Positions 2,199 to 55,056 of a DNA stretch of 64,000 nt are shown here, piece by piece. Every line of letters starts with the position of its first letter. Positions within the stretch are counted from its first letter, which is position 1. The DNA is taken from contig CAVZJB010000009.1 in the NCBI GenBank assembly GCA_963775425.1, forward strand, positions 272,616 to 336,615, in the 5' to 3' direction. A program made the translations under genes and the position numbers. The stretch comes from an uncultured delta proteobacterium. GTDB taxonomy: Bacteria; Myxococcota; UBA727; VGSZ01. The notes beneath the pieces were generated by a model that saw only the letters and a program-made list of their open reading frames with translations, made no database searches and was not told the origin of the DNA.

Positions 2199-3140
2199 AT
2201 GAGCGACCAGAGATGTGAAAACTGCGGCTGTGGGCTCGGCGACGCCGCTGCGTGTCCCGCGTGTGGCCTCGCGCGCATCGGCGCCAGCGTCGGCGCCGTC
2301 GCCGAGAGGCGCTACGACGTCGCGCCGCTCCCCGCCGGCCCCTACGAAGTGGAGCTCGGCATCGGCGACACGCTCTCGTGGACGTTCAAGATGTGGTGGG
2401 ACAACCTGCCGCGCCTCATGGCGCTCGGCTTCGTGCCGTACGCCCTCATGTTGCCGTTCGTCATCCTGGGCGGCGGGCTCGCGCTCAGCCCGCGCTGGGC
2501 CGAAGAGCTGTTCAGCCCGCAAAACCTCGTGTGGCTGGTGCCCGCGGGCTGCGTGCTCTTCGTGGTCTTCATCGTCGCCGGCCTGAGCGCGGCGGGGGGC
2601 GTCGTGCACCTGGTCGACGAGCAGCAGCACGGGGTGCGCGTCGGCGCCTTCGCCGCGCTCCTGACGGGGGCCCGCCACGTCGGGTGGCTCGGCCTCGGGT
2701 GGCTGCTCTTCTCGGCGCTCATGATCTTCGCCGTGGCCGGCCCCGCGCTCCCCATCGCCGTCGCCCTGGATCGCTCGGAGGCGCAAACGGCGCTGTTCGC
2801 GCTCCCGGGTCTCGCCACCGTCGTCGTCGCCATGGTGATCGGCGCGCGCCTCGCGCCCGCGTTCCCGGCGATCATCGTCGAGGACATCGGGCTCGGGCAG
2901 GCGATGTCGCGCGCCTGGTCGTTGACGCGCGGCCGCACGCTGACCGTGCTCGGCGCGTCGGTGCTGTTCATGGTGGCCTACTTCGCCATGAGCATGACGG
3001 CCGGCCTGGTGGGCATCGTGCCCATCCTCGGGCTGGTCGCGCAGCTCGCCATCTCGGCGATGATGGCGCCGCTCACCTACGTCTTTCCGTTCGCCGTCTA
3101 CGCCGGCTGCGTCCGCGCCGAGCAGCGCGCTCAGCGGTAG
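2199..3140 (+). CDS. Zinc-ribbon membrane protein (hypothetical)
   Basis: Start chosen at MSDQRCENCGCGLGDAAACPACG (CxxC...CxxC zinc ribbon). Several predicted TM helices follow. The upstream part of the track ORF (from 2133) is Arg-rich and less convincing. Confidence 0.5.
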   Translation: MSDQRCENCGCGLGDAAACPACGLARIGASVGAVAERRYDVAPLPAGPYEVELGIGDTLSWTFKMWWDNLPRLMALGFVPYALMLPFVILGGGLALSPRWAEELFSPQNLVWLVPAGCVLFVVFIVAGLSAAGGVVHLVDEQQHGVRVGAFAALLTGARHVGWLGLGWLLFSALMIFAVAGPALPIAVALDRSEAQTALFALPGLATVVVAMVIGARLAPAFPAIIVEDIGLGQAMSRAWSLTRGRTLTVLGASVLFMVAYFAMSMTAGLVGIVPILGLVAQLAISAMMAPLTYVFPFAVYAGCVRAEQRAQR

Positions 3141-3562
3141 ATCGCCGCCCAGCCCGCCGGGTCCTTGAACAGCCGCACGCAGCGGATGGTCTTTTTGTCC
3201 GTGAGCTCGAAGCGGTGGTGTTTGCCCTTGGGGACGACGATCAGGTCGCCGGGCTCCACCACCACGCGCATCCACCTGTCGTCGTTGCTGCGGATGTCGA
3301 AGACGCCCTCGCCCTCGAGGACGAAGCGCACCTCGTCATCGTCGTGGTGGTGCTCCGGATCGAACTTGGCGAGCAGGCCCTCGAGGTTCGCCGTGTCGGG
3401 GCGCAGGGCCACCTCGTCCTGCGTGATGTAGCCGCGGCGCTTGGTGAGCTCGTCGAGCGCGGGCTGGTGCGCGCCGAGGGGCAGGTCGCGATAGATGACA
3501 CCGTTTTCCTCGAGGAGGTTCCCGTCGATGGCCTCGTTGGTGTCGCGGAAGAAGGCTCTCAT
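3131..3562 (-). CDS. mtnD: Acireductone dioxygenase (ARD, methionine salvage)
   Basis: The true start is at MRAFFRDTNEAIDG; the 273-aa track ORF carries an Arg-rich spurious extension. Cupin motif: FDPEHHHDDDEVRFVLEGEGVFDI...PKGKHHRF...FKDPAGW. The ATGA overlaps the mtnB stop. Confidence 0.85.
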   Translation of the reverse strand: MRAFFRDTNEAIDGNLLEENGVIYRDLPLGAHQPALDELTKRRGYITQDEVALRPDTANLEGLLAKFDPEHHHDDDEVRFVLEGEGVFDIRSNDDRWMRVVVEPGDLIVVPKGKHHRFELTDKKTIRCVRLFKDPAGWAAIYR

Positions 3563-4242
3563 GGCTGCGTCTCCGAGGGGTGACGTCGCATGTGTACGGC
3601 GACGTCGAAGAGGTAGTCGTAGCACTCGGCGTGGCGCTTGGCTTCGCGCCAGTCCGCGCCCCACACGTAGACCCCGTGGCGGCGCACGAGGACCGCGTGC
3701 GCGTCGGGGTATCCGGCGACGGCGGCGCTCAGGGAGTCCGCCAGGTCGCACTCGCGGGCCGTGTTTTCGATGACGGGCACGCGGTGGACGTCGTCGTAGC
3801 CGACGCCGCGCAGGCCCTTCATCATCTCGAGCTTCGTGAGCACGACCTCGCGATCGAACGCGAGGGTGGCGAAGAGCGCGCGCTTGCTGTGTGTGTGGAT
3901 GACGGCGCCGGCGCCGCGGAGCTTCATGGCCGCGAGGAACAGCGGGCGGCACTGCGAGACGGTGAAGCCCGACGACGCCGGCGGCCCCGCCTTCACCTCA
4001 CCGTCGTCGTCGAGCTCGAAGATGACGTCGGGCGTGAGCAGCTCCTTTTGCACCCCCGACGGCGCCATGAAGGTGCGCCCGTCGTGGCGGATGGAGATGC
4101 CGCCGCCGGTGCCGCTCACCCAGCCCTGCGTATAGAAGCGCCGGCCGAGCGCGCAGATGACGCGCTTGGCGTCGTCCGCGGAGCCGACCGGCTTGTCCTC
4201 GAGGTCCACACGGAGAGCTTGCCCGGCCGCCGCGCGCCCCAC
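3559..4242 (-). CDS. mtnB: Methylthioribulose-1-phosphate dehydratase (class II aldolase/adducin family)
   Basis: Motifs FYTQGWVSGTGGGISIR, AVIHTHS and VLVRRHGVYVWG are typical of MtnB. It is translationally coupled to mtnD. Confidence 0.85.
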   Translation of the reverse strand: MGRAAAGQALRVDLEDKPVGSADDAKRVICALGRRFYTQGWVSGTGGGISIRHDGRTFMAPSGVQKELLTPDVIFELDDDGEVKAGPPASSGFTVSQCRPLFLAAMKLRGAGAVIHTHSKRALFATLAFDREVVLTKLEMMKGLRGVGYDDVHRVPVIENTARECDLADSLSAAVAGYPDAHAVLVRRHGVYVWGADWREAKRHAECYDYLFDVAVHMRRHPSETQP

Positions 4243-4259: not shown

Positions 4260-6701
4260 CTATTGCACGACGGCGGCGAGGTTGTCGGTGCAGGCGTAGC
4301 TGTCGTCGAAGCTGCTCTGGTCGTAGGTCGGGTTCAGGCCGCCGCCCACCGAGAGGGTGTCGCCGTCGACGGTGATGGTCCCCGAGATCTGGTTGGTGAC
4401 GCCGTCGAGGCTGCCGTTGACGGCGCTCAGGTCGGTGTCGGGGATCTCGATCTCGAAGGTCTTGCCCTGCGCCTCGAGCGTGGCGTGGGCGTTTCGCAGG
4501 TGCACGTTGGAGATGCGCGCCACCGGCGTCGGCACGTCGAAGGTCTGGGTGTCGTCGGCGCGGGCGCCGGTCGCGGGCTCCACCGTCGCCGACAGCGTGC
4601 CGTCGTGGATGGTGAGCTTGCCGATGGGCTCGCTCTCGCCCGCCGCCAACGGATACGTAACGAACTCGTGGAGCGCCGTGTTGTCGAGCCAGATGGTCAC
4701 GCTCTCGTCGTTGCGCGGCTCGATGGCGTCGATGATCAGGAACTGGGTGGTGCGCTCGCCGAGGACGGTGCGCGTGGCGTTCACGTCAGCGGTGCCCTGG
4801 TAGAACGTCGCGCCGCCGCTGCAGTCCTCGCTGAGCGTCTGCAGGTTCGGGTCGCCGACGGTGCAGCCGGAGACGTCCCACGTCATCGAGCCCATGTCTC
4901 CCGGGTTGCCCTGAACGTCGCTCGGGAAGATCAACACGCCGAGCTGGTCCTCGAAGCCGCAGTTGCTGTCGCCGTTCACCATGGTCGCCACCGTGCCCAC
5001 CGTCTGGATCACCAGGCGCGCGGCGCCGTCGGCGATGACCTGGTGGAAGTTGCACTGCGCGTCGCTCGCCGGCACCGCCATGTTGGGCGTGCAGGCGTAG
5101 CTCGCGTTGAACGCGGCGGCGTCGTAGTTGGGGTCGAGGATGGGGGCGCCCTCGAGGGGGATCTGGTAGTCGGTGCCGTTGACGGTGATGTCGCCGGCGA
5201 GCTTGTTCTCCACGCCGTCCTTGTTGCCGTTTTGCGCCGAGAGGCTGCTGCCGTCGATGTCGATGCGCAGCGCGTTGCCCGCGGCGCGCACGATGCCCAC
5301 CGCGCCGGGCTGCCACGCCAGGTCGTCGAACGTGGACACGGGCGTGGGGATGCTGCACGCGCCGGTGAGCGTGTCCTGCGCCATGCGCGGCTCCATCCGT
5401 CCGTCGATGCCGCCCTCGACGACCTCGAGGGATTGGTCGGAGACGCTGTCGGTGACGCGAAAGTTCTGGAAGTCGATGTGGAACGTGAACGACGCAGGGT
5501 CGCGTGACGTCGGGATCACCGGCTGCGACGGGTCGCCGCTCAGGCGGCCGCGCAGGCGCATGGTCCCCGTGATGAGCGCGGTGCCCTCGGCGTAGGTGGT
5601 CTTGCCCGAGCAATCGCGCGCGACCTCGGTGGGCGTGGGGAACACCAGCGCGCAGGGTTGATCGATGCGGAACACGGCCTCGCCGCCCTCGTGGCCGACG
5701 TCGCCGGTGATCTGGGCGTTCGCGATGACGCCGGGGCTCATGAAGCCGCAGCGGGTGTCGGCGGCGGCGACGGAGATCACGTTGCCCACGTTGTTCACCG
5801 TGAGCTTGGCGGCGCCGTCGGCGAGCTGCGGCGTGAGGTCCTTGCAGACGTACTCCACGGGCAGCTTGAGGTCGTCGACGCAGGCGAACGAGTTGGCGAA
5901 CTCGTCGGCCTTGTAGTCCGGGTCGAGCACGTGGTCGTCGTTGAGGTCGACGTCGCTGTCCCAGACCGTGATCTTGCCCTCGAGGTAGTTCTCGAAGTCG
6001 CCGTAGACGCCGAGCTGCGCCTTCTCCTCGAGCGACGGGACGTCGACGTCGAAGATGTGGCCGTCGTCGTCGACGGTGTAGGTGGCGTCCGTGACCTTGA
6101 TGCTGTTGAGCGTGACGTCGCTGGTGGGGACGCCGCAGACGCCGAGCGAGATGTTCTGCGCGAGGTGGATGCTCGCGCTCTCGTCGACGTGGCCCGTATG
6201 CATGGTCAGGCCGGTGGTCTTGTCGCTCAAGCGGATCTGGTAGTCCTGCACGTCGGCGCTGACGGTGATGGCGACGGCGTCCGGGGACGACGGGATCACG
6301 GGGTTTTCGGGGTTGCCGGTGAGGGTGCCGGTGACGGTGCGGGTGGCGCTCAAGGTGACCTTGCCGCTCACCGTGGTCTTCTCCCCGTTGCAGTCTTCGC
6401 TGGGGGCCCCGCCCGGGACCAGCGTGTCGCCGAAGTCCATGACGCAGTTGTCGACGGTCCAGGTGACGGTGCCGGGGCCGCCGAGCTCACCGTCCTCGAC
6501 GTAGTTGTCCTGCACGTGCTTCGAGGAGAAGCCGCAATTCGTGTCGGCGTCGGCGAGCGCGATGAGCTTCACCGCGTTTCGCACCGTGAGGCGCGCGGCG
6601 CCGGCGCCGACGTCCTTGGGAAAGAATTGCTCGATCTCGCACCCGCCGCCGAGCGCCACGGCGGAGAAGGTGAAGACCAGGATGATGCAGCGCGTAAGCA
6701 T
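4260..6701 (-). CDS. Large probable lipoprotein built from three tandem repeats of about 260 aa (unknown family)
   Basis: Start at MLTRCIILVFTFSAVALGGGC (signal peptide ending in Cys). The rest of the 1578-aa track ORF upstream is Arg-rich junk. Repeat units are at about 5814-6599, 5025-5813 and 4263-5024. Each begins AA(R/K)L(T/V)... with D(A/S)(D/N)xxCGF and ends LDP(D/N)Y...(F)(A/D)xSYAC...ADG. Confidence 0.7.
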   Translation of the reverse strand: MLTRCIILVFTFSAVALGGGCEIEQFFPKDVGAGAARLTVRNAVKLIALADADTNCGFSSKHVQDNYVEDGELGGPGTVTWTVDNCVMDFGDTLVPGGAPSEDCNGEKTTVSGKVTLSATRTVTGTLTGNPENPVIPSSPDAVAITVSADVQDYQIRLSDKTTGLTMHTGHVDESASIHLAQNISLGVCGVPTSDVTLNSIKVTDATYTVDDDGHIFDVDVPSLEEKAQLGVYGDFENYLEGKITVWDSDVDLNDDHVLDPDYKADEFANSFACVDDLKLPVEYVCKDLTPQLADGAAKLTVNNVGNVISVAAADTRCGFMSPGVIANAQITGDVGHEGGEAVFRIDQPCALVFPTPTEVARDCSGKTTYAEGTALITGTMRLRGRLSGDPSQPVIPTSRDPASFTFHIDFQNFRVTDSVSDQSLEVVEGGIDGRMEPRMAQDTLTGACSIPTPVSTFDDLAWQPGAVGIVRAAGNALRIDIDGSSLSAQNGNKDGVENKLAGDITVNGTDYQIPLEGAPILDPNYDAAAFNASYACTPNMAVPASDAQCNFHQVIADGAARLVIQTVGTVATMVNGDSNCGFEDQLGVLIFPSDVQGNPGDMGSMTWDVSGCTVGDPNLQTLSEDCSGGATFYQGTADVNATRTVLGERTTQFLIIDAIEPRNDESVTIWLDNTALHEFVTYPLAAGESEPIGKLTIHDGTLSATVEPATGARADDTQTFDVPTPVARISNVHLRNAHATLEAQGKTFEIEIPDTDLSAVNGSLDGVTNQISGTITVDGDTLSVGGGLNPTYDQSSFDDSYACTDNLAAVVQ

Positions 6702-6749
6702 GCAGGAATCCCTCCCGGGAACGACTTGGGTCATGTATCGCACCTGCAT

Positions 6750-7934
6750 ATGCGACCGTTGCCTACATGGTCTGACCATCGGGCGTTTGACCGAGATCTG
6801 CGCGAGATCTCGTCGACGACGCAGGGGCGCGCGGCCCCGGCGTCGGGCGCCCCCTCCCCGGCGGGCCGCGGGGTCACGCGCCGCTTCTACTGGGAGCTGG
6901 TCTCGCTGCGGCGATCCGGGGGCCCGCAGGCGGCGGCGGTGCTCGCGGACCGGCGCATGGACGTGGCCCTCTCGGCGCTGCGCGCGGCCCGGCCGGAGGA
7001 GCCGCTGCGCATCGCCTGCGTGCTCGAGCTCGCCGACGAGATGGACGTGGCGCCGCTGTTGCGCGCGCGCGCGGCCCTGGCCCGCCACGAGATCGCGCTC
7101 GATCTCTGGCCGCAGCTCGCCGGCGCCGAGCGCTTCCTGAACACGGGCACCGCCGAGATCTTCCAGCAGCGGTTGCTGCCGCTCCTCGACGTGCTCGCCC
7201 GCAGCGACGATGGCTGCGACATCGGCGTCGCCCTCGACCTCGAGCCCAACGAGGCGCTCGCGCGGGCGGCGTGGGAGATGCGGGCGCCGGGCTCCTCGCT
7301 CTTCGAGCGCGCGCGCGCGCTCGGTCGCATCGCGAGGAGCGTGGGCGGCAGCGTGGCCATGGCGCGCCAGGGGCGCCGGGACCTCGCCGAGCTCGCGCGC
7401 GACCTGCAGGCGCGCGATCTCCCGGTGCACGTCGCGGTGATGCCGCCGCTGTCGTCGTCCACGAGTGACACGCTGCGCGCGTGGGCGCTCGGCTGCCCCG
7501 CCGTCGACGACGACGGCCGGCCGCTCTTCGGCCTTCAGGCCGCCATGTGCTACGCGTCGCTCACCCGGCGGCTGCCGGAGCGCCTGCGCGCCAGGGTGGA
7601 CCCGCGGCCCCTCGACGACGACGACGACGACGCGCGCGACGCGGACCGCCGCCGCGACAAGGACACGCTCGCCTTGTGGGCGGCCCGCCACCGCACCGCC
7701 TTCGACGCCGTCGTCGTCGGCATGACCGCCACCGGCATCCTCGGCGACGAGCCCGTCTACGAAGACCCCGCGGTGCTCGCCGAAGACGTGCGCGCCATGG
7801 AGGCCCTCGGCTTCTCGGACGTCGCCCTCTACGCGCTCGAGGGCCTGTTCTTCGGCCCCGCCGGCCCCGGCGACGACCTTGCGCTCCGCCCCGACGTCGA
7901 GCGCTGGCTCGGCGCCGCGTTCGGCGAGGCCTGA
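6750..7934 (+). CDS. Hypothetical protein
   Basis: Only the 3' third of track ORF 5658..7934 has protein-like composition and high GC3. Candidate starts are ATG 6750, GTG 6939 and ATG 6957. It has an acidic DDDDDDARDADRRRD tract. No family recognised. Confidence 0.45.
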   Translation: MRPLPTWSDHRAFDRDLREISSTTQGRAAPASGAPSPAGRGVTRRFYWELVSLRRSGGPQAAAVLADRRMDVALSALRAARPEEPLRIACVLELADEMDVAPLLRARAALARHEIALDLWPQLAGAERFLNTGTAEIFQQRLLPLLDVLARSDDGCDIGVALDLEPNEALARAAWEMRAPGSSLFERARALGRIARSVGGSVAMARQGRRDLAELARDLQARDLPVHVAVMPPLSSSTSDTLRAWALGCPAVDDDGRPLFGLQAAMCYASLTRRLPERLRARVDPRPLDDDDDDARDADRRRDKDTLALWAARHRTAFDAVVVGMTATGILGDEPVYEDPAVLAEDVRAMEALGFSDVALYALEGLFFGPAGPGDDLALRPDVERWLGAAFGEA

Positions 7935-7948
7935 GGAGACGGCCGCAC

Positions 7949-8890
7949 CTACGGGCCGATGGACCAGGCGGCGAACGAGTCGAACGACGTCACCATGCGG
8001 TTGGACCGGAGCACGACGCCGCCGGCGGGCGTGGCGGTGGCGTCGACGACGGTGGCCACGCCCTCGAGCTGGCACTGCAGCGAGCCGTCGAGCACCGCGC
8101 GCAACAAGAGCGTGGGTCCGACGATCTGATCGGGGCTCGCGAGGTCGCTCGACGCGCGGAATTCGCTGGCGTCGTTGTTCACCAGCCCGTCGATGACGAG
8201 CGCCTGCGCGCCGTCGCCGATGACGGGGAAGCACATCACGCCGTCGGCGTCGCCGGTCATGCCGACGCCGATGCCCGCGCTCGCCGTGTTGAACTGGCCG
8301 CCGAGCTCGAAGCTCTCCACGGTGAAGCGGAGCTCGACGACGATGTGGTCGGTGGGGGCGATGTCGGTGCGCCGCAGGATCTCGGCGTCGGCGGTGGCCG
8401 TGTGATGAAGCTGATCGTTCGAGAGGCTCCATGAGCCGGCGCCGGTCCACGCCGACGAGAGCACCACGCCGTCGAACGCGTCGAACGCGATGAGCACGTC
8501 GCCGCCCTGGTCGGGCCGTGGGTCGCACGCGTCGCCGACGCCGTCGCCGTCGCTGTCGGCCTGGGCCGCGTCCGAGGTGGTGGGGCAGTCGTCGCAGCGG
8601 TCGGCGACGCCGTCGTTGTCCTCGTCGTGGGTGCCGCAGGGATCGCCTTCGCCTTCGCCCTCGCCGCCTTCGCCCTCGCCCTCGCCCTCGCCGAAGTCGG
8701 TGATGCAGTGTCCGTCGCGGCAGACGTGGCCTACGAAGCAGTCGCTGTCGGCGTTGCAGATGACGCCGCTGTCGTCGGGCGGGCAGCCGCTCGTCGCCAC
8801 GATCGCCACGAACACGAGCGCGGCGCGCGCGAGCGCCGCTACGGGCGCGGTGGCGAGGCCGGAGACCGGGGGGCGGCGCATGCGCCGAGG
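7949..8890 (-). CDS. Probable lipoprotein with a (Gly-Glu)n linker, thrombospondin type-3-like Ca-binding repeats and a LamG/concanavalin-like C-terminal domain
   Basis: Start at MRRPPVSGLATAPVAALARAALVFVAIVATSGC. Followed by a Cys-rich knot (CNADSDCFVGHVCRDGHC) and GEGEGEGEGGEGEGEG. Then DEDNDGVADRCDDCP...DSDGDGVGDACD. The beta-rich tail ends SFDSFAAWSIGP. Confidence 0.7.
   Translation of the reverse strand, partial: PRRMRRPPVSGLATAPVAALARAALVFVAIVATSGCPPDDSGVICNADSDCFVGHVCRDGHCITDFGEGEGEGEGGEGEGEGDPCGTHDEDNDGVADRCDDCPTTSDAAQADSDGDGVGDACDPRPDQGGDVLIAFDAFDGVVLSSAWTGAGSWSLSNDQLHHTATADAEILRRTDIAPTDHIVVELRFTVESFELGGQFNTASAGIGVGMTGDADGVMCFPVIGDGAQALVIDGLVNNDASEFRASSDLASPDQIVGPTLLLRAVLDGSLQCQLEGVATVVDATATPAGGVVLRSNRMVTSFDSFAAWSIGP
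8644..8694. repeat. In-frame (GGCGAG)n-type hexanucleotide tract encoding (Gly-Glu)n
   Basis: The plus strand reads cgccttcgccttcgccctcgccgccttcgccctcgccctcgccctcgcc, which is the coding complement of GEGEGEGEGGEGEGEG. Confidence 0.8.
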
Positions 8891-8946
8891 ATAGCGCGCC
8901 GCAGGCGGGGTCGCCGTCTCCGTCGAGAGCCCTACGCGGCCGCGGT

Positions 8947-9300
8947 TCACTTGCAGGCGGCTTCGACCTTGTCGAGCGTCCACGTGTCGGGGCCATAGCG
9001 GCCGAGCACCACGCCGTCGGCGTCGATGAGCCACGCGCCCTTCACGCCGACCTTCACCATGTAGCCGGCCTCGGGCTTCCGGGCGGTCACGGTGGCGCCG
9101 TCGAGCGTGCCCCGCAGGACGCGCGCGACGTCGAGCACCAGCTCCTGTGAGGGGTTCAGCGTCCCCTTGTCGCTCCACGTCGCCGGTTTGTCGGGCGGCG
9201 GCGGCGTCGGCCCCGTGGCGGTGACCTCTTTGACCGTGGCTTCGACGACGAGCGTGGCGAGCGGGATGATCTCGTGGAGGGGCTCGGGGGGCTTGGCCAT
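8947..9300 (-). CDS. Small hypothetical protein downstream of the calpain-like protease
   Basis: 117-aa ORF (MAKPPEPLHEIIPLATLVVEATVKEV...) with good GC3. It starts 20 nt after the protease stop, so it is probably co-transcribed. No family recognised. Confidence 0.5.
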   Translation of the reverse strand: MAKPPEPLHEIIPLATLVVEATVKEVTATGPTPPPPDKPATWSDKGTLNPSQELVLDVARVLRGTLDGATVTARKPEAGYMVKVGVKGAWLIDADGVVLGRYGPDTWTLDKVEAACK

Positions 9301-9319: not shown

Positions 9320-11119
9320 TCAGGACACGCTCCACAGGACCGAGTACCACTTGGGCATGTCGTCGAGCTTGAGCTCGAAGATGCCGTCGTTCTTCCCGTT
9401 GCCGCGCGGCTCGGACTCGCCCCAGGGGTTCCTGAGCTTCACCATCTTCACGCCGTTTTTCTCGTAGGCGTCGACGACGGTGTAGGTGTGGTCGCCGTAG
9501 ACGCCGGTGTTGGCGAACAGCGCCTCGTGGCCCGCGTCGTCCTTGGTGCCGAGGCACACCGGGAGCTTGTGCGCGAGCTTGTCCTTGATGATGCGGAAGC
9601 ACGCGTCCTTGTTGCGCGCCGAGAAGTCCTTCTCGAGCGCCGGCCGGCCGAGGACCGCTTCGAAGAGGTCGGCGGAGCTGCCGCCGTCGCCGATGTCGTT
9701 GTAATCGCCGTTGAGCTGCGCCCACGCTTTCTCGAAGAGCGGGAACCACAGCTCCATCTTGTCGCGCGCGGTGGAGTTGGCCGACGAGCCGTACAGCGGG
9801 CCGCCCCAGGAGCGCGTGTAGAGGTCGGCGTCGACGGCCTCAAGGTGCTTCTTCGCGTACCCGTCGCGGTCACGCTTGAGCTCGACGACGTAGAACGTGC
9901 CGTTCGCCGGCAACGGCGGCTCGCCGCGCTTCTTCCTGTCCGCGTTCACGGTCTTCCGGTCGGCGTCGGTGGCCACGCGGATGATCTGCGTGAGCAGGTC
10001 GGGGCGCACGAGCGCGAGCGCCGCCGCCCCCGCCGGCGTGTAGCAGTCGCCGAGGTTGCCCTGCACCACGTCTTCCATGGCGGCGCCGTCCTTGAACAGC
10101 GGCCCCGTGTAGTTCTTGAGGTCGTAGCGCGAGCTGCCGTCGGGCTTGCGATCGTCCTTGTGCGGCTTGGGATCTTCGATCTCCACGGGAGCGCCCGTCG
10201 CGCCGCCCGCGCCGAGCACCGCCGAGGTGCCGGCGATCTCCTTGAAGTCCGTGTTGTTGCGGCCGTCGGTGGCCGCCACCTGGAACGTGTCGCCGGGCTT
10301 GCCGTTCAGCTTGGGGACGCCGGGGAAGCGCCCGGTGTCGTCCATGGTGATGTCGGTCTTTTCGCCGGTGCGCTCATTTTCGAAGCGCAGCACCGCGTAG
10401 GGCTCCGAGATCGGGCGGGAGTTGTTGTTGTTGGCGACGGCGATCTTGCCGCGTCCGGCGTCGGACAGCTCGATGCGCATGAGCGCCACTTCGGCGCCGC
10501 GCTTGTCGGCGCCGAGCTGGTCGGCGCGGATCACCATCCAGGCCGAGGCGTTGCCGTGCGCGTCCCGGGTGCGCACGCGCAGCCAGTCGCCGCCCTTCAG
10601 GTCGGTGGTGCCGGTGAGCCGGCCGGTGGCGTCGGTCTTTCCGAGGACGAAGGTGTCGTCGTCGTGAAGGCGCATCGCGGGGATGGCCGAGAGGTTCAGC
10701 GCCTCCACCGTCACGTTCGGCCCGGCGCTCCCTTCGATCTTCACCTTGCCGCGCACGAGCCTCATGTCGGTGATGTTGACGGGGCCGCTTTGCGGGTTCA
10801 CCGGCGCGCGGCCGACGAGCTGCTCGAGGAAGCGCTGCGCGTCGTCGGCGAGGGGGACGGCGCCGCCGTCGAGGATGGCCTCGACGTCCTTCTTCTCACG
10901 CTTGCTCAAGCCCTCGCGCACGATGGACATGAGCTCCTGCTTGGACACCGCGTTGTCGAGCTGGTCCCGCGCGCTCGTCATCGCGAGGCCGCTGCGGTCG
11001 GCGATGTCGGCGAGGAGGGCCTTCAGATCGTCGAGGCCGGCCTTCTTCGAGCCCGTGAAGGCGCGCGCGAGCTTGTCGACCTCGGCGCGGATGGAGCGGT
11101 CGCGGATGGTGACGGGCAT
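9320..11119 (-). CDS. Calpain-like cysteine protease (peptidase family C2) with a long N-terminal region of unknown function
   Basis: Catalytic motifs occur in calpain order: QGNLGDCY (Cys), GDHTYTVVD (His), VKLRNPWG (Asn). Start chosen at ATG 11119 (MPVTIRDR), which sits 5 nt after a GGAG. No signal peptide. Confidence 0.8.
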   Translation of the reverse strand: MPVTIRDRSIRAEVDKLARAFTGSKKAGLDDLKALLADIADRSGLAMTSARDQLDNAVSKQELMSIVREGLSKREKKDVEAILDGGAVPLADDAQRFLEQLVGRAPVNPQSGPVNITDMRLVRGKVKIEGSAGPNVTVEALNLSAIPAMRLHDDDTFVLGKTDATGRLTGTTDLKGGDWLRVRTRDAHGNASAWMVIRADQLGADKRGAEVALMRIELSDAGRGKIAVANNNNSRPISEPYAVLRFENERTGEKTDITMDDTGRFPGVPKLNGKPGDTFQVAATDGRNNTDFKEIAGTSAVLGAGGATGAPVEIEDPKPHKDDRKPDGSSRYDLKNYTGPLFKDGAAMEDVVQGNLGDCYTPAGAAALALVRPDLLTQIIRVATDADRKTVNADRKKRGEPPLPANGTFYVVELKRDRDGYAKKHLEAVDADLYTRSWGGPLYGSSANSTARDKMELWFPLFEKAWAQLNGDYNDIGDGGSSADLFEAVLGRPALEKDFSARNKDACFRIIKDKLAHKLPVCLGTKDDAGHEALFANTGVYGDHTYTVVDAYEKNGVKMVKLRNPWGESEPRGNGKNDGIFELKLDDMPKWYSVLWSVS

Positions 11120-16413: not shown

Positions 16414-17763
16414 ATGCGCACGCGCGTCGTCGCAGTCGTCTTCGCCACCGTCGTCGTCGCCGGTGTCACGCTCGGCGCCACCGATCCGCCGCCGACGCGG
16501 ATCGCGCCGCACGGCGCGCAGGTCATGGCCGATCAGATCGCGGCGTTCGACGCGCTGAAGACCGACGTCACGGGCGAGGTGATCCCCACCGACCGGGCCT
16601 ACTGGAACACGCTCGTCCCCGAGGACAACGCCGCCACGCCCGCGCGCATCGCCCTCGGCAAGAAGCTCTACTTCGACCCGCGGCTGTCGCGCGACGGCAC
16701 CGTCGCGTGCGCGACCTGCCACGACGTCAGCCGCGGCTTCACCGACCGGCGCCCCGCGTCCGAGGGCATCGGCGGGCGCATCGGACGCAGAAACGCGCCC
16801 ACCACGTTGAACGCGGCGTTCTTCTCGTCGCAGTTCTGGGACGGGCGCGCCAAGACCCTGGAGGACCAGGCGAGGCTGCCGCCGCTGAACCCCGTCGAGA
16901 TGGGACAGCCCAACGGGGACGCGGTCGTCGCCGTGCTCACAGCGGACGCCGACTACCCGCGGCTGTTCCACGAGGCCTACGGACACCCGCCCAACTACGA
17001 AGACTTCGGCCGCGCCATCGGCGCCTTCGAAAGGACGCTCATCTTCCTCGACGCGCCCTTCGACCGCTTCATGAACGGACAGGTGGACGCCATCGACGAC
17101 GACGCCAAGGCCGGCATGGTGCTCTTCTTCGGCAAGGCGCGCTGCGCCTCGTGCCACACCCTGAGCGCCGTGAACCCCGTCGGCACCGACAACCGCTTCC
17201 ACAACATCGGCGTCAGCGCGCGGCACCAGGACTTCGAGAAGCTCGCGCGGCAGGCGGTGGCGGCGCTCGACAAGACGGGCGGCGGGGACCGCGCCGTCGA
17301 CGAGCTCGCGCTCTCCAGCGATCTCGCCGAGCTCGGCCGCTTCGTCGTCACCAAGCACCGAAGCGACATCGGGGCGTTCAAGACGGAGCAGTTGCGCAAC
17401 GTCGGGCTCACGCCGCCGTACATGCACGACGGCTCCATGCAGACGCTCTGGGACGTCGTCGACCACTACAACAAGGGCGGCGAGGCGAACCCGTACCTCG
17501 ACGGCGGCATCGAGCCCCTCGACCTGAGCGAGCAGGAGGTGAACCAGCTCGTCGCCTTCATGTTCACGCTCACCGACGCGCGCTTCGCCGATGACAACCG
17601 CACGCAATTCAATGAGCAGCGGGCGAAGGCGCAGAAGTCGCGCCCGTTCCGCGACGACGAGCTCGCGCACAGGACAGTGCTGCCGTTTCAGCAACGCCTG
17701 GCACGCGAGGACCGCGCGGCGGGCTCCGTCGACGGCGGGACGCGAGGGAAGGGGGCGCCATGA
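16414..17763 (+). CDS. Di-haem cytochrome c peroxidase (CCP/MauG family)
   Basis: Start MRTRVVAVVFATVVVAG after GGGAG. Two CxxCH motifs (CATCH, CASCH). Further motifs: RNAPTTLNAAF, FWDGRA, PPYMHDGS. Confidence 0.85.
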   Translation: MRTRVVAVVFATVVVAGVTLGATDPPPTRIAPHGAQVMADQIAAFDALKTDVTGEVIPTDRAYWNTLVPEDNAATPARIALGKKLYFDPRLSRDGTVACATCHDVSRGFTDRRPASEGIGGRIGRRNAPTTLNAAFFSSQFWDGRAKTLEDQARLPPLNPVEMGQPNGDAVVAVLTADADYPRLFHEAYGHPPNYEDFGRAIGAFERTLIFLDAPFDRFMNGQVDAIDDDAKAGMVLFFGKARCASCHTLSAVNPVGTDNRFHNIGVSARHQDFEKLARQAVAALDKTGGGDRAVDELALSSDLAELGRFVVTKHRSDIGAFKTEQLRNVGLTPPYMHDGSMQTLWDVVDHYNKGGEANPYLDGGIEPLDLSEQEVNQLVAFMFTLTDARFADDNRTQFNEQRAKAQKSRPFRDDELAHRTVLPFQQRLAREDRAAGSVDGGTRGKGAP

Positions 17764-24056: not shown

Positions 24057-27000
24057 TCAGGCCGCGGAGACGTCGACGCGGCTCTTGCCGCCGCCGAGCG
24101 GGACCACGCGGACCTGCGCGCCGATGCGCTCGGCGAGCGCGGGCAGGTGCGAGATGACGCCGATCTGCCGGCCGGTGGCGCGCAGCGCCTCGAGCGCCGC
24201 CAGCGCCGCCTCGAGGGTCTCCGGGTCGAGGCTCGAGAAACCCTCGTCGATGAACAGGGACTCCACCGGCGTCCGCGCCGCCGACAGCGCCGACAACCCC
24301 AGCGCCAAGGACAGCGACACCAAGAAGGTCTCTCCGCCCGACAGCGAGCCCACCGCGCGCGGCTCGTCGCCGCTTTCGCAATCGACGACGACGAGATCGA
24401 GGTCGAAGCGCGCGCGCTTGTCGCCGCCGCCGGCGCGCTCGAGGCGGTAGCGCGGCGCGAGCATCGCGAGCTGCGCGTTGGCGTGCACGAGCAGCGCGTC
24501 GAGCGTGAGGCTCTGCGCGAACACGCGGAAGCGCGCGCCGTCGGCGGAGCCAATCACGTCGCTCAAGCGCTCCCAGGTGAGCGCCCGTGCGCGCTGCGCC
24601 TCGAGCCTCGGGAGGAGCAGCCCCGCGCGCCGCCGCGCATCGTCGTCGCGCGCGAGCGCCGCGCGGGCGCCGGCCCAGCGCTCGGTCGCGACGGCGAGCG
24701 CCGCCCGCGCGTCGTCGACGGTGTCCGGCGCCTGCGCCGGCGCGCCCTCGCCGTGCGCCTGCGCCGCCGACGCGCGCTCCGCGAGCACGGCCTCCGCGCG
24801 GGCGACGGCGTCGTCGAGCGCGCGCACCGCGGCGCGGGCGCGCTCGAGGGCGCCGTCGTCGAGAGCGCAGGCGCGGGCGAGCGCGTGATCGTCGTCGACG
24901 TCGCTGACGTCGCTGACGTCGCTGACGCGCGGCCCGGCGGCGCCGAGGCCCCCGTCGGGGACGGCGGGCCCCCCTCGGGCGAGCCGCCCACCGGGGCGCG
25001 CCGCGCGGCGGGCCGCCTCGAGCGCGGCGCGGGCGTCGTCGTGCGCGCGGCGGGCGCGCTCGTCGCCGTCGAGGGCGCCGGCGCGCCCGGCCTCGGCCTG
25101 GCCGCAGCGCACCTCGGCGGCGGCCAGGGCGACGGCGGCCTCGGCCGCGGCGGCGCGCGCCTCGTCGAGGGCGGCGGTCAGGCGCCCGCGGACCTCGGCG
25201 ACCGACGCGCCGTCGAACAGCGCCGCGCGGGCCCGCAACAGCTCCGCCTCGTGCGCCCGCGCCTCCGCCGCGCGTGACGCCAGCGACGCCTCGCGCTCGG
25301 CGGCGGCGGCGCGGCGCTGCTCGAGCGCGCGCAGGGCGGGCTCGCTGTGCGCGAGCGCGGCCCGGGCGCGCAGCGCGATCTGCTGTTGCGCGCGCAGCCC
25401 CTCGACGCGCGGCTGCAGCGCGCGCAGCAAGGCGCGCGGCGAGGCGAGCGCATCGGCGGACGCGGCGCGCGCGTCCCCCTCCGCGCCGCCGTGCGGATCC
25501 AGGCGCGCGCGCAGAGACGCCGCGCGCTCGTCGCGGGCGACGACGCGGCCCTCGACGTCGTGCACGCGCAGGGCGAGGGCCTGCTCGTCCGCGGCGACCG
25601 CGGCCCCGGCGTCTGCCAACGCGCGCTCCATCGATCGGACGCGCTCGTCCGCGGCGCGCGCCCGGGCGAGCGCCGCGCGGCCGCGGGCGAGGGCGTCTTC
25701 GTCGAGGGCCGGCCCGCGCCGCTCGGCTTCGAGCCGCGCGACGTCCTCGTCGACGCGCGCCTGCTCGCCCGCCGCGTGCGCCAGCGCGCGCTCGATCTCG
25801 GCGGCGCGCGCCCGGGCCGCCGCGGCGCGCTCGCCCTGCCCACGCGCCGCGTCCTCGAGCGCCTCCAGCGGCGCGGCGGGCGCGTCGACCGCGGCGTCGT
25901 CCATCGGCGCGCCGTCGACGGCGGGGTGCGCGCGGCTCCCGCACAGCGGACACGGCTCGCCGTCGCGCAGCCGCGCGCGCCGCGCGCACGAGAGCGCCTC
26001 GCTCGCGCGGGCGCGCGCCTCGTCCGCGGCGCGCGCCTCGTCGACGGCGGCCGCGCGATCTGCGCGCAAGGCCGCGGCGCGGCTGAGCACACGCGCCCGC
26101 TCGGCGTCGAGCGCGCGGCGGTGCATCAAATCGGCCGCGGCCCCGGCGAGGATGCCGGCGGCGTCGTCGACGTCGCCGTCGCCCACCACCGCCGCGAGCG
26201 CCGCGCGCGCCTGGCCCAGCTCCGCGCCGGCGGCCGCGAGGCTCGCCGCCGCTTCGTCGCGCGCCGCGCGGGCCTCGTCCCGGTTGCGGGCCGCCGCGGC
26301 GGCGAACGCGCGCGCGCCCTCGAGCTCGGTGTCGAAGCGCGCGAGCTTGTCGAGGTCTGCCGCCAGCGCCTCCCACGACGGGATCAGCGCCACCAACGAC
26401 GGCTCGCGGGCGAGCACCTCTTCGGCGCGGTGGAGATCGCCGGCCGCCACCGCGCGGCTGACGGTCAGCTCGGCGAGCTCGCGCTCCACGCCGGCGAGCT
26501 CGTCCGCGGCGCGCGCGTGCGCGTCGACGGCGGCGGCGGTGCCGGCGCGCACGATCTGTTCGTCGAGCCGCAGCGCGCGCTCGAGCTCCGGCTCCGCGTC
26601 GGCGAGCACGCGGGCATGGTGGACGAACGCCTCGTCGGCGCGTGCGCGCCGCTCGCGCGCGCTGGCGACGTCGCCGCGCGCCCGTCGCTCGTCGTCACGC
26701 GCGCGCTCCGCCGCCCGCGCCGCACGCTCCGCCGCCGCCCGCGCCGCGCGCTCCGCCGCCGCGGGCGCCCGCAGCGGCCACACCCGCTCGAGCTCCGCGA
26801 GCTCCTGCGCCGCGGGGGCGCTCGCGCGGGCGCGCCGGGCGGCGTCGACGTCGACGGCCGCGGCTGCGGCGGCGCGCTCGAGCTCCAGCGCGCGCTCGTC
26901 GTGCCGCCGGCGCGCCTCGGCCGCCTCGAGCGCCCCTGCGGCGGCGGCGCGCGCGGCGTCGGCGTCGGCGTCGGCGCTCTCGAGGCACCGGCGCTCGTCG

Positions 27001-27687
27001 TCGCCGGCCGGCGGCATGGCGCGCAGCTCGTCCTCGAGGGAGCGCAGCGCGCGCGCCTCCTCCTTGCTGCGCTCGTGGGCCTGCACGGAGAGCGTCGAGT
27101 ACAGATCCGTGCCCGTGATCTTTTCGAGGAGCGCCGCGCGGTCGTCGGCGCGCGCCTTCAAGAAGCTCGCGAAGCCGCCCTGGGCGAGCAGCACCGAGCG
27201 GCAGCACTCGTCGAAGGTGAGGCCGAGGCGGGCGCGGATGTGCTCGAGCGTGTCCTCCTTGCCGTCGCCGGCGCGCTCGCCGGTGACGACGTCATGAAGC
27301 GTGAGCACCTCTTCCTGCAGGCGGCCGAAGGCCTGGCCGCGGGCGCGCCGCACCGTCCAGCGCGCGCGCCACACGCGCCCGTCGACGCCGCTGAAGTCCA
27401 CCTCGGCGAACGCGGTGGCGGCCATCCGGCGCACGAGGCTCTTGGGATCGTTGGCGCGCAGCGACGCGCCGTCCTTCTTGAGCGGAGATCCGCCGCGCCC
27501 CGACAGCCGCGGCGTGCGGTTGAAGAGCGCGAGGCACATCGCGTCGAGGAGCGTGGACTTGCCCGAGCCGACGGGGCCGGCGATGGCGAACAGGCCGAGG
27601 TGGCACAGCGGCGGCTGCGCGAGAATCGACGGCGAAGCCGCCCTTGAGCGACGCGAGGTTGGCGCCGCGGATGGCGAGGATCCTCAC
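24057..27687 (-). pseudogene. sbcC: SbcC-type exonuclease ATPase subunit, N-terminus displaced by a +1 frameshift (or a sequence error)
   Basis: The GTG start overlaps the sbcD stop (GTGA). It reads VRILAIRGANLASLKGGFAVD, the frame breaks at 27622-27627, and it continues LAQPPLCHLGLFAIAGPVGSGKSTLLDAMCLALFNRTPRL (Walker A). A very long Ala/Arg/Glu coiled coil follows, with a CPLCGS zinc hook. C-terminal motifs: LSGGETFLVSLSLALGLS and LFIDEGF. Confidence 0.85.
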
Positions 27688-28973
27688 GGCCGCTCCCCCT
27701 CGTCGGCGGCCCTCGCCGGCACGGTGGACGGCGGCACCGTGGACGGCGGCACCGTCGACGACGGCGCGACGGCCTCCATCAGCTCGAAGAAGGCGCCGCG
27801 GATGTCGTCCGGGACGGCGCCGCCGTAGGTGCGCTCGTAGAGCCGCTCGAGCACGTGAACGGGCTCGATGTCCTGCAGCGAGGCGGCGGCGGCGACGTCG
27901 GCGAGGGGGCCGCCGTCGCCGGCGAGCGCCCGGTGCACGCGCACGAGCCGCACCGGCTTCCCCTCGAGCGCCGCCTCCACGCGCGCGCGCAGGTCGGGGC
28001 ACGGGGCGTCGAGCTTGACGCGCACCTCGAGGAGCGGCCGCGCGTCGACGGGGGCGTCCGGGAGATCGAGCGCGCGCAGGCGGGCGAGGACGTCGTCGAC
28101 GCCGGCGGCGGCCTCGGGGACGCGCAGCAGGTCGACGGCGCGCGGGACGAAGAGCGGGCGGACGCGGGCCTCGGGGAGGTCGACGACGAGCACCTGGTGG
28201 CGGTAGGCGCGCTCGGTCATCGACAGCGGGATGGGCGAGCCGCTGTAGCGGACGTTGTCGCGGCCGGCGACGTCCTGCGCGAGGTGGAGGTGGCCGAGCG
28301 CGACGTAGTCGACGTCGTCGGGGAAGATGTCGGCGGGGAGCGCGTGGACGTTGCCGAACACGGGGCGCTCGCTGTCCTCCGTGAGGCGCCCGCCCTGCAT
28401 GTGGCAGTGCCCGAGCGCGACGAGCGACTGCCCGGGGTGGCGCCGCGCGCGCGCGTGGTCCAGCACGCGGGCGTAGGCGTCGGCGACGCCGGCGACGACG
28501 GCGTCGCTGACGTCGGCGGGCTGGGGCGCGAGGTCCGCCATGCGCAGGAAGGGCAAGGCGGCGCACCACGCCTCGACGTCGCCGCCGTCACCGGTGAGCG
28601 GAACGACGCAAGACGCCGCGTCCACCTCGCCGGACGCGCGGGGCAGGGCCCCAACGACGTGCACGTCGAGCTCGCGCAGGATGGGGCCGGGCGCATCGAG
28701 GCGCGGCGCGGCGTCGTGGTTTCCGCCGATGACGACGATGTCGAGCCGCGGGAAGCGGCGCCGCGCCTCGGCGAGCCAGCGGTAGTACTGCGACTGCGCG
28801 GACGCGGGGGCGTTGCCGGTGTCGAAGACGTCGCCGCAGACGACGACGGCGTCGGCGCGCTCGTCCTCGATGCGATCGAGCAGCCACGCCATGAAGCGCT
28901 GGTGCTCCACGGCCCGCGAGAAGCCGCCGAGGGTCTGCCCCAGGTGCCAGTCGCCGGTGTGGATCAGCCGCAA
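27684..28973 (-). CDS. sbcD: SbcD/Mre11-type nuclease subunit
   Basis: Motifs: MRLIHTGDWHLG, VVCGDVFD, IGGNHD, GHCHMQGG, ALGHLH. The C-terminus carries a 15-bp x3 repeat (STVPP x3) at 27718-27762. Confidence 0.9.
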   Translation of the reverse strand: MRLIHTGDWHLGQTLGGFSRAVEHQRFMAWLLDRIEDERADAVVVCGDVFDTGNAPASAQSQYYRWLAEARRRFPRLDIVVIGGNHDAAPRLDAPGPILRELDVHVVGALPRASGEVDAASCVVPLTGDGGDVEAWCAALPFLRMADLAPQPADVSDAVVAGVADAYARVLDHARARRHPGQSLVALGHCHMQGGRLTEDSERPVFGNVHALPADIFPDDVDYVALGHLHLAQDVAGRDNVRYSGSPIPLSMTERAYRHQVLVVDLPEARVRPLFVPRAVDLLRVPEAAAGVDDVLARLRALDLPDAPVDARPLLEVRVKLDAPCPDLRARVEAALEGKPVRLVRVHRALAGDGGPLADVAAAASLQDIEPVHVLERLYERTYGGAVPDDIRGAFFELMEAVAPSSTVPPSTVPPSTVPARAADEGERP

Positions 28974-34247: not shown

Positions 34248-35163
34248 ATGCGAGGCGCGTGCGCCGCACCCTGCGTGCTCAAGCAGCGCACCGCGCTCAT
34301 CGGCGTGGCCGCCTGGTGCATCGCCGCGTGGTGCGGGTGCGACCGCCCCGCGCACGGGGGCGCCTGCAACGAGGACTCGGATTGCGCGGGCGCCTCCTGC
34401 GTCCTCGGCGCGTGCGTGGTCCCGGCCGTGGTGTGCGGAGACGGCAAGCTCGACGCGGGCGAGCAGTGCGACGACGGCGCGCGCGCAGCCGGTGACGGCT
34501 GCGACGCCCGCTGCCTGATCGAGGCGGGCTGGGACTGCGGCGGCGCGCCGAGCGTCTGCCAGCGCTGTGGCGACGGGGTGCAACAGGGCACCGAGGCGTG
34601 CGACGACGGCGGGCTCGCGCCCGGCGACGGCTGCACCGCGGCGTGCTCCGTCGAGAGCGGCTACGCCTGCGCCGGCGCGCCGAGCGCGTGCGCCCCGGTG
34701 TGCGACGACGGCACGGCGACGCCGGCGACGGCTGCGACGAGAGCTGCGCGGTCGAGACGGGCTTTGCCTGCGACGACGGCGAGCCCTCGACGTGCATGGC
34801 CGTCTGTGGCGACGGGCTCGTGCGCGGCGCCGAGGGCTGCGACGACGCCAACGCCGCCGCCGGCTGCGACGCCGGCTGCACCCCGACCGTCGGCTTCGCG
34901 TGCGACGCCTCCGAGCCGTCGGTCTGCCGGACCTTGCAACGGGCGCGACCGCCTTGCACGGCGTCGACGCGAGCGAGCTTGTGCTCACGCCGACGGGCGC
35001 AACGCGATCCCCCCTCCCCGCGGTGGTCGCCGCCGCCGGTGCGCACGAGAGCCCTCCACACCGCTGCGAAGTCGCCACAGCGACACCGCTCCCAATTCCG
35101 TTTCGACTATTCCGCTATGCGGATCACTTCTCTAGGCGAGCCTGGCCAACCGAAGCGCGGTGA
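34248..35163 (+). pseudogene. Myxococcus-type cysteine-rich repeat (CGDG...CDDGN..GDGC) secreted protein, broken by at least two single-base deletions; 3' end unresolved
   Basis: Signal-like start MRGACAAPCVLKQRTALIGVAAWCIAAWCGC. Repeats: CGDGKLDAGEQCDDGARAAGDGCDARC and CGDGVQQGTEACDDGGLAPGDGCTAAC. After CDDG (about 34713) the motif continues one frame over: GDAGDGCDESCAVETGFAC...CGDGLVRGAEGCDD. A second shift lies near 34927. Only 34248 to about 34930 is supported by motifs. Confidence 0.55.
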
Positions 35164-47662: not shown

Positions 47663-47828
47663 GGCCCCCGAATGAACAACTCGATCGCCCTCGCGGCCGA
47701 TCCATCGCCGCTGGCTTCGTTGCTCGTCGGTCACGTGGCGACGGCCACGCTCCCTCCTCGCGCCTCGCCATCGGCGCGCCTCGACCGCGATCATCGACCG
47801 ACTTGTTCATTCGAGGGCCCTTAGCCCT
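47654..47828. repeat. 175-bp element bounded by 34-bp imperfect inverted repeats, located exactly between two convergent stop codons
   Basis: Left arm 47654-47687: agggcttagggcccccgaatgaacaactcgatcg. The reverse complement of 47795-47828 is agggctaagggccctcgaatgaacaagtcggtcg (30/34 identical). The asnB-like stop (47660-62) lies inside the left arm. The NRPS stop (47829-31) abuts the right arm. Confidence 0.6.
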
Positions 47829-52202: not shown

Positions 52203-52237
52203 GTCGTCGGATTATCACGACCTGCGGCGCCCGCGCA

Positions 52238-54094: not shown

Positions 54095-55056
54095 CAATAT
54101 CCCGCGGCGACGTCGACCACGCCGAGGAGCGGCTCCCGCGCGGCGTAGCGGCGGACGTTGTCGCGCACGCGCTCCTTCAGGAGCGGCACCGCCATCTCGG
54201 GCGTGTTCCCGACGTGCGGCGTGATGACGCAGCGCTCGCTGCGCCACAGGGGGTGATCCTCCGGGAGCGGCTCGGGATCGGTGACGTCGAGCGCGGCGCC
54301 GCCGATGACGCCGCGCGCGAGCGCGTCGACGAGGGCGCCGGTGTCGACGAGGGCGCCGCGCGCGACGTTCACGAGCCAGGCGTGCCGGGGCATGCACGCG
54401 AGCTCCGCGGCGCCGATCATCCCCCGCGTCTCCGGCGTCAGCGCCGCGGCGAGGAACACGACGTCCGCCCCGGCGAACGCCTCGCGCCGCGCTTCGAACG
54501 TCACCGTCCGCACCAGACCGTCGCCGCCGGCGAACGGGACGCTCCGGCGCCTGACGACGGTGAGCGCGCAGCGAAACGGCGCCAGCAGCGCGACCAGGCT
54601 CCGGGCGATGCCGCCGGCGCCGACGATGACGACCTTCCCGCCGAGGAGCGAGAGCCCATCCGCGGGCCCGCCGTTCGGCCGCACCCAGGAGCGCGCGAGC
54701 GCGCGTGCCTTCAGGTTGCGCAGCCCGGCGAGCGCCAGGGCGAGCGCGTGCTCGGCGACGGGGGCGGCGTACACGCCCTGTCCCGCGGTGAAGCGGTGGT
54801 TGTCGTCGAGGACGCTGAGGAACGGCTCGATGCCCGCCCACGGCAACTGCACCCAGCGGATGTTGTCGTGCAGATCGAGGAGGGCGCGCAGGTCGGCGGC
54901 CCCCGTCGAGCTCGCCCAGACGAGACCCTCGGCGTCCTCGGGGGAAGCGAGCGCGGCGCCGCCTTCGACGACGGCGTCCTCGAGGAACGGGCGCACGCCC
55001 TTCGGCGCCACGCAGACCTTCAGCGCGCTCACGGCGCCGATGATGCACGGCGCCAC
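54094..55056 (-). CDS. D-isomer-specific 2-hydroxyacid dehydrogenase family protein
   Basis: Motifs: GKVVIVGAGGIARSL (NAD site), LVNVARGALVD, LDVTDPEPLP, ITPHVG. Confidence 0.8.
   Translation of the reverse strand: MAPCIIGAVSALKVCVAPKGVRPFLEDAVVEGGAALASPEDAEGLVWASSTGAADLRALLDLHDNIRWVQLPWAGIEPFLSVLDDNHRFTAGQGVYAAPVAEHALALALAGLRNLKARALARSWVRPNGGPADGLSLLGGKVVIVGAGGIARSLVALLAPFRCALTVVRRRSVPFAGGDGLVRTVTFEARREAFAGADVVFLAAALTPETRGMIGAAELACMPRHAWLVNVARGALVDTGALVDALARGVIGGAALDVTDPEPLPEDHPLWRSERCVITPHVGNTPEMAVPLLKERVRDNVRRYAAREPLLGVVDVAAGY

Follow-up and report, generated by a model that had tools for sequence, protein, structure and literature searches.

An 813-residue predicted lipoprotein with three diverged copies of an unassigned module in an uncultured member of the Myxococcota

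The window, as we call the whole stretch of DNA that was analysed, comprises 64,000 nucleotides from an uncultured delta proteobacterium of the Myxococcota (contig CAVZJB010000009.1, positions 272,616 to 336,615), and the element in question is a gene on its reverse strand, at window positions 4260-6701, that encodes a predicted lipoprotein of 813 amino acids. There is strong support for the conclusion that this protein consists of three homologous modules of about 260 residues in tandem, joined without flexible linkers. The module, which matches no known family or solved structure, defines a new domain family and may represent a new fold. The family of proteins in which it occurs is small, modular and confined to one lineage of uncultured Myxococcota.

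Three modules behind a predicted lipid anchor

A preliminary description, made from the letters of the DNA alone, had proposed three diverged copies of one module with shared landmarks, and this proposal holds. When the three units are aligned with each other by the Smith-Waterman method, the scores are 222-299, versus 37-41 +/- 6-7 for shuffled sequences (z = 26-45), and the identity between units is 31-35% over 236-245 columns. When profiles of the unit types are aligned with hhalign, the probability is 100%, with E-values from 1e-58 to 1e-78 over 250-256 columns. Statistical repeat detection by both methods thus recovers the copies, while an hhalign test for a sub-repeat inside a single unit was negative (probability 15%). 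The landmarks AARL..., CGF, DCxG and LDPxY...SYAC...ADG are all found in the translation and in the unit alignments: CGF occurs at residues 56, 318 and 581, i.e. with spacings of 262 and 263, and DCxG at residues 103, 363 and 626.

The limits of the units follow from hidden Markov model envelopes, complemented for the first by unit typing. Unit 1, of the membrane-proximal type, covers residues 28-289 (5835..6620, reverse strand); unit 2, of the internal type, residues 290-552 (5046..5834, reverse strand); and unit 3, of the terminal type, residues 553-813 (4263..5045, reverse strand). The lengths of 262 and 263 residues originally given for the first two units agree with these limits, while the third unit, for which 254 residues had been given, has 261. 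Unit 3 is slightly the most conserved of the three among homologs, with a mean pairwise identity of 49% versus 45-46% for units 1 and 2.

Translation of the gene (reverse strand) gives 813 codons followed by a TAG stop at 4260-4262, and a complete, identical 813-residue product (P0001) has already been called on public contigs and assemblies. Direct reading of the sequence places a Shine-Dalgarno-like GGGAGG at 6711..6716 on the same strand, with a 9-nt spacer to the ATG at 6701. A mechanically derived open reading frame of 1578 codons (4260-8996, reverse strand) was discarded as artefactual; it results from the high G+C content, which is about 70% in the window, and its part upstream of 6701, the first 765 codons, is Arg-rich nonsense and the antisense of a genuine forward-strand gene at 6750-7934, discussed below. 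No promoter-like or terminator-like site came up in a scan for them. No second copy of the lipoprotein was found in the window, and a GTDB genome scan with the lipoprotein as query returned one locus.

Residues 1-20 (MLTRCIILVFTFSAVALGGG; 6642..6701, reverse strand) have the features of a type II signal peptide, i.e. one basic residue, a hydrophobic core and small residues before Cys21, and the predicted local distance difference test score (pLDDT) of the AlphaFold model is below 50 over these residues, as expected for a signal peptide that is cleaved off. The lipobox Cys21 (6639-6641) opens the post-cleavage motif C-E-I-E-Q-F-F (6621..6641, reverse strand), for which the family consensus is C-Q-L-E-R-L-F-P. 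The residues before it (...SAVALGGG-C21) conform to the lipobox pattern [LVI][ASTVI][GAS]-C, with G replacing L at position -3. Of 76 aligned three-unit homologs, 73 possess the N-terminus, and all 73 have [LA][AGS][GAS]-C after a hydrophobic signal peptide, which bears out the earlier designation as a lipoprotein; E occurs at position +4 in 71 of them and F at +7 in 64. Unit 1 follows the Cys21 motif without a flexible, low-complexity tether. From the lipobox cysteine, the motif directly after it and the missing tether we infer a lipoprotein in which the first module abuts the lipid anchor, and the sequences strongly support the prediction that the gene product is exported and N-terminally lipid-anchored.

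In Myxococcus xanthus, one report describes Lys at +2 as a mark of inner-membrane lipoproteins and Ala at +7 as a mark of matrix lipoproteins (PMC3222651). The sorting positions of the present family hold Q or E at +2 and F at +7, with neither Lys at +2 nor Ala at +7, and by this rule, which comes from a distant relative, the lipoprotein would by default reach the outer membrane after Lol-dependent sorting. The preliminary description had called the modules extracellular. Export is indeed implied, as is an oxidising compartment; the periplasmic and the cell-surface face of the membrane are both possible locations. In its mature form the protein has an isoelectric point of 4.1 and a net charge of -74, i.e. 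it is very acidic.

The cysteines, numbered C1 to C6 in each unit, are residues 56, 86, 104, 189, 274 and 286 in unit 1 and residues 318, 350, 364, 449, 537 and 550 in unit 2; unit 3 has residues 581, 613, 627 and 804 and is without the C4-C6 pair. The mid-unit cysteine that had been listed among the landmarks of all three units is therefore present in units 1 and 2 (C189, C449) and absent from unit 3. Across 403 units, C1, C2, C3 and C5 are essentially invariant, while C4 and C6, in the middle and the tail of the unit, respectively, occur in 97-100% of the non-terminal units and in 0-6% of the terminal ones. When cysteines are lost in rare natural variants, they are lost in pairs: C1 with C2 in 7 units and C3 with C5 in 10; C4 is lost together with C6 in 222 units, and the pattern CCC-C- is seen in 219 last units. 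These three pairs also rank within the top 24 couplings of the direct-coupling analysis described below (29-61, 75-248 and 160-261). Pairwise conservation had earlier been taken to suggest disulfides, and the paired losses together with the couplings make the scheme C1-C2, C3-C5, C4-C6 a secure prediction from sequence, with three disulfides per unit and two in the terminal one. In unit 1 the predicted bonds are 56-86, 104-274 and 189-286; in unit 2 they are 318-350, 364-537 and 449-550; and in unit 3 they are 581-613 and 627-804.

In structural terms, C1-C2 would tie the loop after the N-terminal helix to strand 2, C3-C5 would tie the hairpin of strands 2 and 3 to the C-terminal segment, and C4-C6 would act as a staple on the connector to the next module. 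Since this predicted C4-C6 bond pins the connector leading into a following unit, its absence from terminal units is accounted for, and the last module dispenses with the staple. Some complete two-unit lipoproteins (P0213, P0225, P0237, P0245) stop right after C6, with endings such as ...FSCPTP or ...FVCQ; these proteins have no type-3 tail and retain the C4-C6 staple though no unit follows.

Predicted fold and distribution of the family

Structure prediction for one unit had been proposed as a check, and AlphaFold2 gives a confident model of unit 2 from 44 diverse units (pLDDT 96.9, predicted template modelling score, pTM, 0.92). For the full-length protein with 76 homologs the corresponding values are 93.5 and 0.79, and pLDDT is at least 90 across both unit junctions. 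In the model each unit begins with a helix of about 24 residues, followed by a short helix, a short strand, seven up-and-down strands of 16-23 residues and a partly helical C-terminal segment. The helix is amphipathic, with one polar stripe (unit positions 6, 10, 14, 21 and 24) and otherwise apolar; the strands alternate between apolar and polar residues, which gives the sheet one apolar face, with register shifts in mid-strand.

The topology was checked independently by mean-field direct-coupling analysis (DCA) of 779 units, with an effective number of 690. The strongest couplings recover the ladders between neighbouring strands, b2-b3, b3-b4, b4-b5, b5-b6, b6-b7 and b7-b8, and DCA links the N-terminal helix with each of the strands b2 to b8, with contacts that progress from the C-terminus of the helix, at b3, to its N-terminus, at b8. 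The C-terminal segment is coupled back to b5-b8. For closure of the sheet between b2 and b8, DCA gives only one weak coupling (61-214), and closure is not supported. The DCA contacts agree with the AlphaFold model of unit 2, and the prediction, which has strong support, is of a strongly twisted seven-stranded meander with a polar outside that encloses about three-quarters of a central helix.

The module is completed by the conserved C-terminal segment LDPxYD..F..SYAC, and few parts of the unit are as strongly conserved as this connector (L522 100%, P524 95%, C537 100%). The conserved connector, the confidently modelled junctions and the pTM of the full-length model argue for a chain that is predicted to be rigid, and against beads on a string.

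A word-indexed search returned 154 relatives, and all those with names are hypothetical proteins from metagenome-assembled genomes (MAGs) of Myxococcota or 'Deltaproteobacteria'. An exhaustive HMMER search of 1.84 billion representatives, with a profile built from 44 units, found only 404 proteins at E <= 1e-3, and no single-unit protein was seen among the best 150 of these 404 matches. Unit typing and architecture were determined for 256 relatives, every one of which consists of a signal peptide and 2-6 units with no other domain. The units follow a fixed grammar, in which a type-1 unit comes after the lipobox, internal units vary and a type-3 unit is normally last: 1-2-3 occurs 145 times, 1-2-2-3 55 times, 1-1-2-3 14 times and 1-3 7 times. 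Judged by this recurrence of the order 1-2-3 in 145 of 256 relatives, the triplication is ancient. Lipoproteins with two units occur in complete form, and paralogs with three, four and five units are found within single MAGs (locus tags AB2A00_* and A2138_*).

The module had also been described as unassigned, which searches of Pfam-A, NCBIfam and PDB sequences uphold, since no unit maps to a well-known domain. Neither Pfam nor NCBIfam gave a match for the lipoprotein, for three longer homologs or for the 44 diverse units, and the PDB gave none for the single sequence or the unit profile. In Pfam there was no match for the whole protein at E up to 10, and no TULIP family matched the 44 units at E up to 1. 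A PF27409 tag on homolog P0049 corresponds to a 'faint' AF2028_3rd match, which was judged to be due to chance. A literature search found no relevant description of the family and no literature for the PF27409 accession.

When the full-length model is compared with the PDB by Foldseek, the matches are weak and sub-threshold. The first is LPD-3 (E = 1.7e-4, probability 0.2, template modelling score, TM-score, 0.09), vitellogenin comes next, OrfX2 is fourth, P47 15th and BPI 28th, with numerous large outer-membrane beta-barrels and unrelated proteins in between. Because these matches are weak, and because hhalign comparisons with LptC, LptA and YceB are negative, the module cannot be placed demonstrably in any solved fold family.

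Genes around the lipoprotein and elsewhere in the window

Across ten family neighbourhoods no recurrent neighbour of known function was found. The only conserved neighbour is the gene that diverges from the lipoprotein gene (6750..7934, forward strand), which is called on the public contig and encodes a protein of 394 amino acids. Its product adjoins a lipoprotein ortholog at locus L006 (59% identity) and at L002/L003 (42%) and is absent at L004 and L005; shared contigs and locus tags (A2138_22040/22045) place it also beside other close lipoprotein orthologs. Searches gave no more than 34 relatives, which all belong to this same MAG lineage and several of which lie on contigs with lipoprotein orthologs; the association is limited to the closest ortholog clade and does not extend to more distant lipoprotein orthologs. 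The 394-residue protein has no significant Pfam, NCBIfam or PDB match, and it is a possible functional partner of the lipoprotein. Between its annotated start and the lipoprotein gene there are 48 bp, and alignments with its homologs begin at residue 45; its true start may lie further downstream.

On the other side, 17 nt after the lipoprotein stop, begins an Aldolase_II gene (3559-4242, reverse strand), which overlaps by 4 nt with a gene for a cupin-type protein resembling acireductone dioxygenase (ARD; 3131-3562, reverse strand). The two genes form a methionine-salvage-like pair and are probably co-transcribed here; as functional partners of the lipoprotein they were rejected, the arrangement being absent from all other loci.

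Further away, a 599-residue protein (9320-11119, reverse strand) carries a calpain-type cysteine protease domain (Peptidase_C2, E = 4.5e-23), a domain that is uncommon in bacteria. A peak in G+C content of 0.79-0.81 at 24-28 kb coincides with a pair of reverse-strand genes (24057-28973), a 1160-residue reading frame resembling SbcC/Rad50 (24057-27539) and an SbcD-like nuclease (27684-28973). A 506-residue protein in which allantoicase repeats are fused to an OHCU decarboxylase domain, pointing to purine catabolism, is encoded at 35132-36652 (reverse strand). Positions 45710-54097 hold a small biosynthetic-looking cluster, with an asparagine synthase (45710-47662, forward strand), a 1457-residue protein with formyltransferase, adenylation, carrier and thioesterase domains (47829-52202, reverse strand) and an ABC-transporter ATPase (52238-54097, reverse strand). 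Two relatives of di-haem cytochrome c peroxidase/MauG are encoded at 16414-17763 (forward strand) and at 55139-57064 (reverse strand), the latter match being weak and partial within a 641-residue protein.

Possible functions of the chain

Tentatively, and with less than even confidence, we favour the reading that the lipoprotein is a membrane-tethered binder or carrier, or else a sensor, of a hydrophobic or amphipathic envelope molecule, and not an enzyme. The protein would sit on the outer membrane after Lol-dependent sorting as a rigid, very acidic rod, whose reach would be set by the number of modules (2-6 across the family), and each module would bind its hydrophobic or amphipathic ligand at the interface between helix and sheet. 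This reading is favoured because of the helix-in-sheet design and because several of the best-ranked weak structural neighbours, including both top ones, are lipid-handling proteins.

The design recalls the TULIP domains, in which a super-helical beta-meander is flanked by helical elements and of which YceB is a lipoprotein example (PMC6791001); bacterial TULIPs include YceB as well as the tandem-domain proteins P47, OrfX2 and TipA (PMC6791001; bioRxiv 10.1101/2025.09.09.675085). With the TULIP proteins, among which are BPI/CETP, the SMP domains, P47/OrfX2, YceB (DUF1439), DUF4403 and TipA of Bdellovibrio, the module shares a long helix around which very long antiparallel strands form a super-twisted meander, as well as helical elements on either side, a likeness of architecture that does not prove homology. 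TULIPs often have two tandem domains in an elongated body, YceB is likewise a lipoprotein, and OrfX2, P47 and BPI are among the weak full-length Foldseek matches. The present module differs in having seven strands, three conserved disulfides and 2-6 units joined head to tail. There was no sequence or profile match to the TULIP families LBP_BPI_CETP, SMP, DUF1439/YceB, DUF4403, DUF2140, DUF2993 and P47, and no significant three-dimensional superposition on a solved TULIP was obtained; in a comparison with E. coli YceB the hhalign probability was 0.07%, with a sensitivity limited by the target being a single sequence.

Several results weigh against lipid binding. In Foldseek, the single-unit model finds nothing in the PDB better than E = 0.34, and the full-length matches to lipid proteins have probabilities of at most 0.2 and TM-scores near 0.09. 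The unit profile aligns with E. coli LptC, LptA and YceB at hhalign probabilities below 1%. The helix has conserved Gly and Ala (GAARL...G), and the roughly 40 inward-facing apolar positions of the strands fit an ordinary packed core; the sequence patterns are compatible with such a core or with a putative pocket between helix and sheet. Furthermore, lipid-transport or other partner genes recurring beside family members were not found in the ten neighbourhoods.

Nearly as likely as a lipid binder, and by itself a doubtful proposition, is a purely structural role, in which the protein would be a rigid, disulfide-braced, acidic outer-membrane rod that serves as spacer, stalk or adhesin without a small-molecule ligand. 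The terminal unit, specialised and the most conserved, would be kept at a defined distance, with the reach tuned by the number of units. Such a role agrees with the grammar of the family, in which a type-1 start and the usual type-3 end enclose a variable number of internal units (up to 6 units), and with the finding that one MAG may hold paralogs of three, four and five units. It also agrees with junctions that are both confidently modelled and conserved in sequence, with the slightly higher conservation of the terminal unit and with an isoelectric point of 4.1, while the conserved Gly and Ala on the helix suggest tight packing and transport partner genes are missing from the neighbourhoods inspected. 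However, the Pfam and NCBIfam scans revealed no recognisable adhesin, carbohydrate-binding or peptidoglycan-binding domain, the design of a helix wrapped by a sheet is unusual for stalks, which are typically immunoglobulin-like or beta-helical, and the tip unit gives no sign of diversifying variation.

The binder or carrier that we favour should also be distinguished from a periplasm-spanning hydrophobic bridge, in which the head-to-tail modules would make up a continuous groove that carries lipid or lipopolysaccharide from one membrane to the other, as in LptC-LptA-LptD or AsmA/TamB/YhdP, and which we regard as quite improbable. Like the present modules as predicted, the beta-jellyrolls of the Lpt system (LptC, LptA and the N-terminal domain of LptD) are found in envelope proteins, are built of consecutive, long antiparallel strands whose inner face is apolar, and are concatenated head to tail. 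In contrast, Lpt modules are without a central helix or such a pattern of disulfides, and they belong to separate polypeptides encoded with lptB/F/G. No Pfam match to the OstA or LptC families was found, the hhalign probabilities against E. coli LptC and LptA are about 0.4%, and the ten neighbourhoods inspected contain no Lpt components, whether lptB, lptF, lptG or kds genes. With the bridge-like lipid transfer proteins (AsmA/TamB/YhdP, VPS13 and LPD-3/BLTP1) the protein shares elongated, long-stranded beta repeats with one apolar face, and LPD-3 (BLTP1) is the top full-length Foldseek match (E = 1.7e-4); anchoring to the membrane without a tether and rigid junctions would also suit a bridge. 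The present protein has a lipoprotein signal peptide instead of an N-terminal transmembrane helix or Chorein-N, and its modules are discrete and closed by a helix, whereas the groove of a bridge is continuous and open. The number of units is 2-6 across the family and varies even within one genome, which fits a fixed periplasmic width poorly. The helix occupies the concave face of each unit, whereas the grooves of Lpt and repeating beta-groove (RBG) proteins are open, and the units are connected by helices and loops and not by a continuous sheet. Genes of the lptB/F/G type or other partners are missing nearby, and the TM-scores are near 0.09.

Least probable is that the protein is a dormant effector, a beta-pore-former or membrane attacker, which would turn into a membrane barrel when its long hairpins refold. 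The Foldseek list for a single unit does include pore proteins (epsilon-toxin, gasdermin, MACPF/CDC and aegerolysin pores), and these matches arise because the hairpins are very long. All of them have E >1 and TM-scores of at most 0.1, the three disulfides per unit would pin the very elements that need to refold, and the protein is predicted to be lipid-anchored and not secreted.

A bolder form of the lipid-binding reading, which we consider unlikely, is that the module is an undescribed fold or a very remote, unrecognised branch of the TULIPs. The 2-6 tubes of the stapled, lipid-anchored chain would then constitute a new device for handling envelope lipids, specific to an uncultured lineage of the Myxococcota and possibly acting with the 394-residue protein, which is likewise unassigned.

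With a predicted structure of high confidence, modules that can be counted and a consistent scheme of three disulfides, the family is a well-defined piece of protein dark matter and a ready candidate for a Pfam entry as a domain of unknown function and for structural genomics. Such 'dark' families are numerous, which keeps the interest moderate, and no long-standing question is resolved by this family alone. Its range is narrow, within uncultured Myxococcota, about whose envelopes little is understood. Lipid binding by the modules would make the protein a new lipoprotein-type carrier in bacterial envelope biology and a possible distant bacterial relative of the TULIPs, while a structural role would make the module a new element from which rigid rods of tunable length can be assembled.

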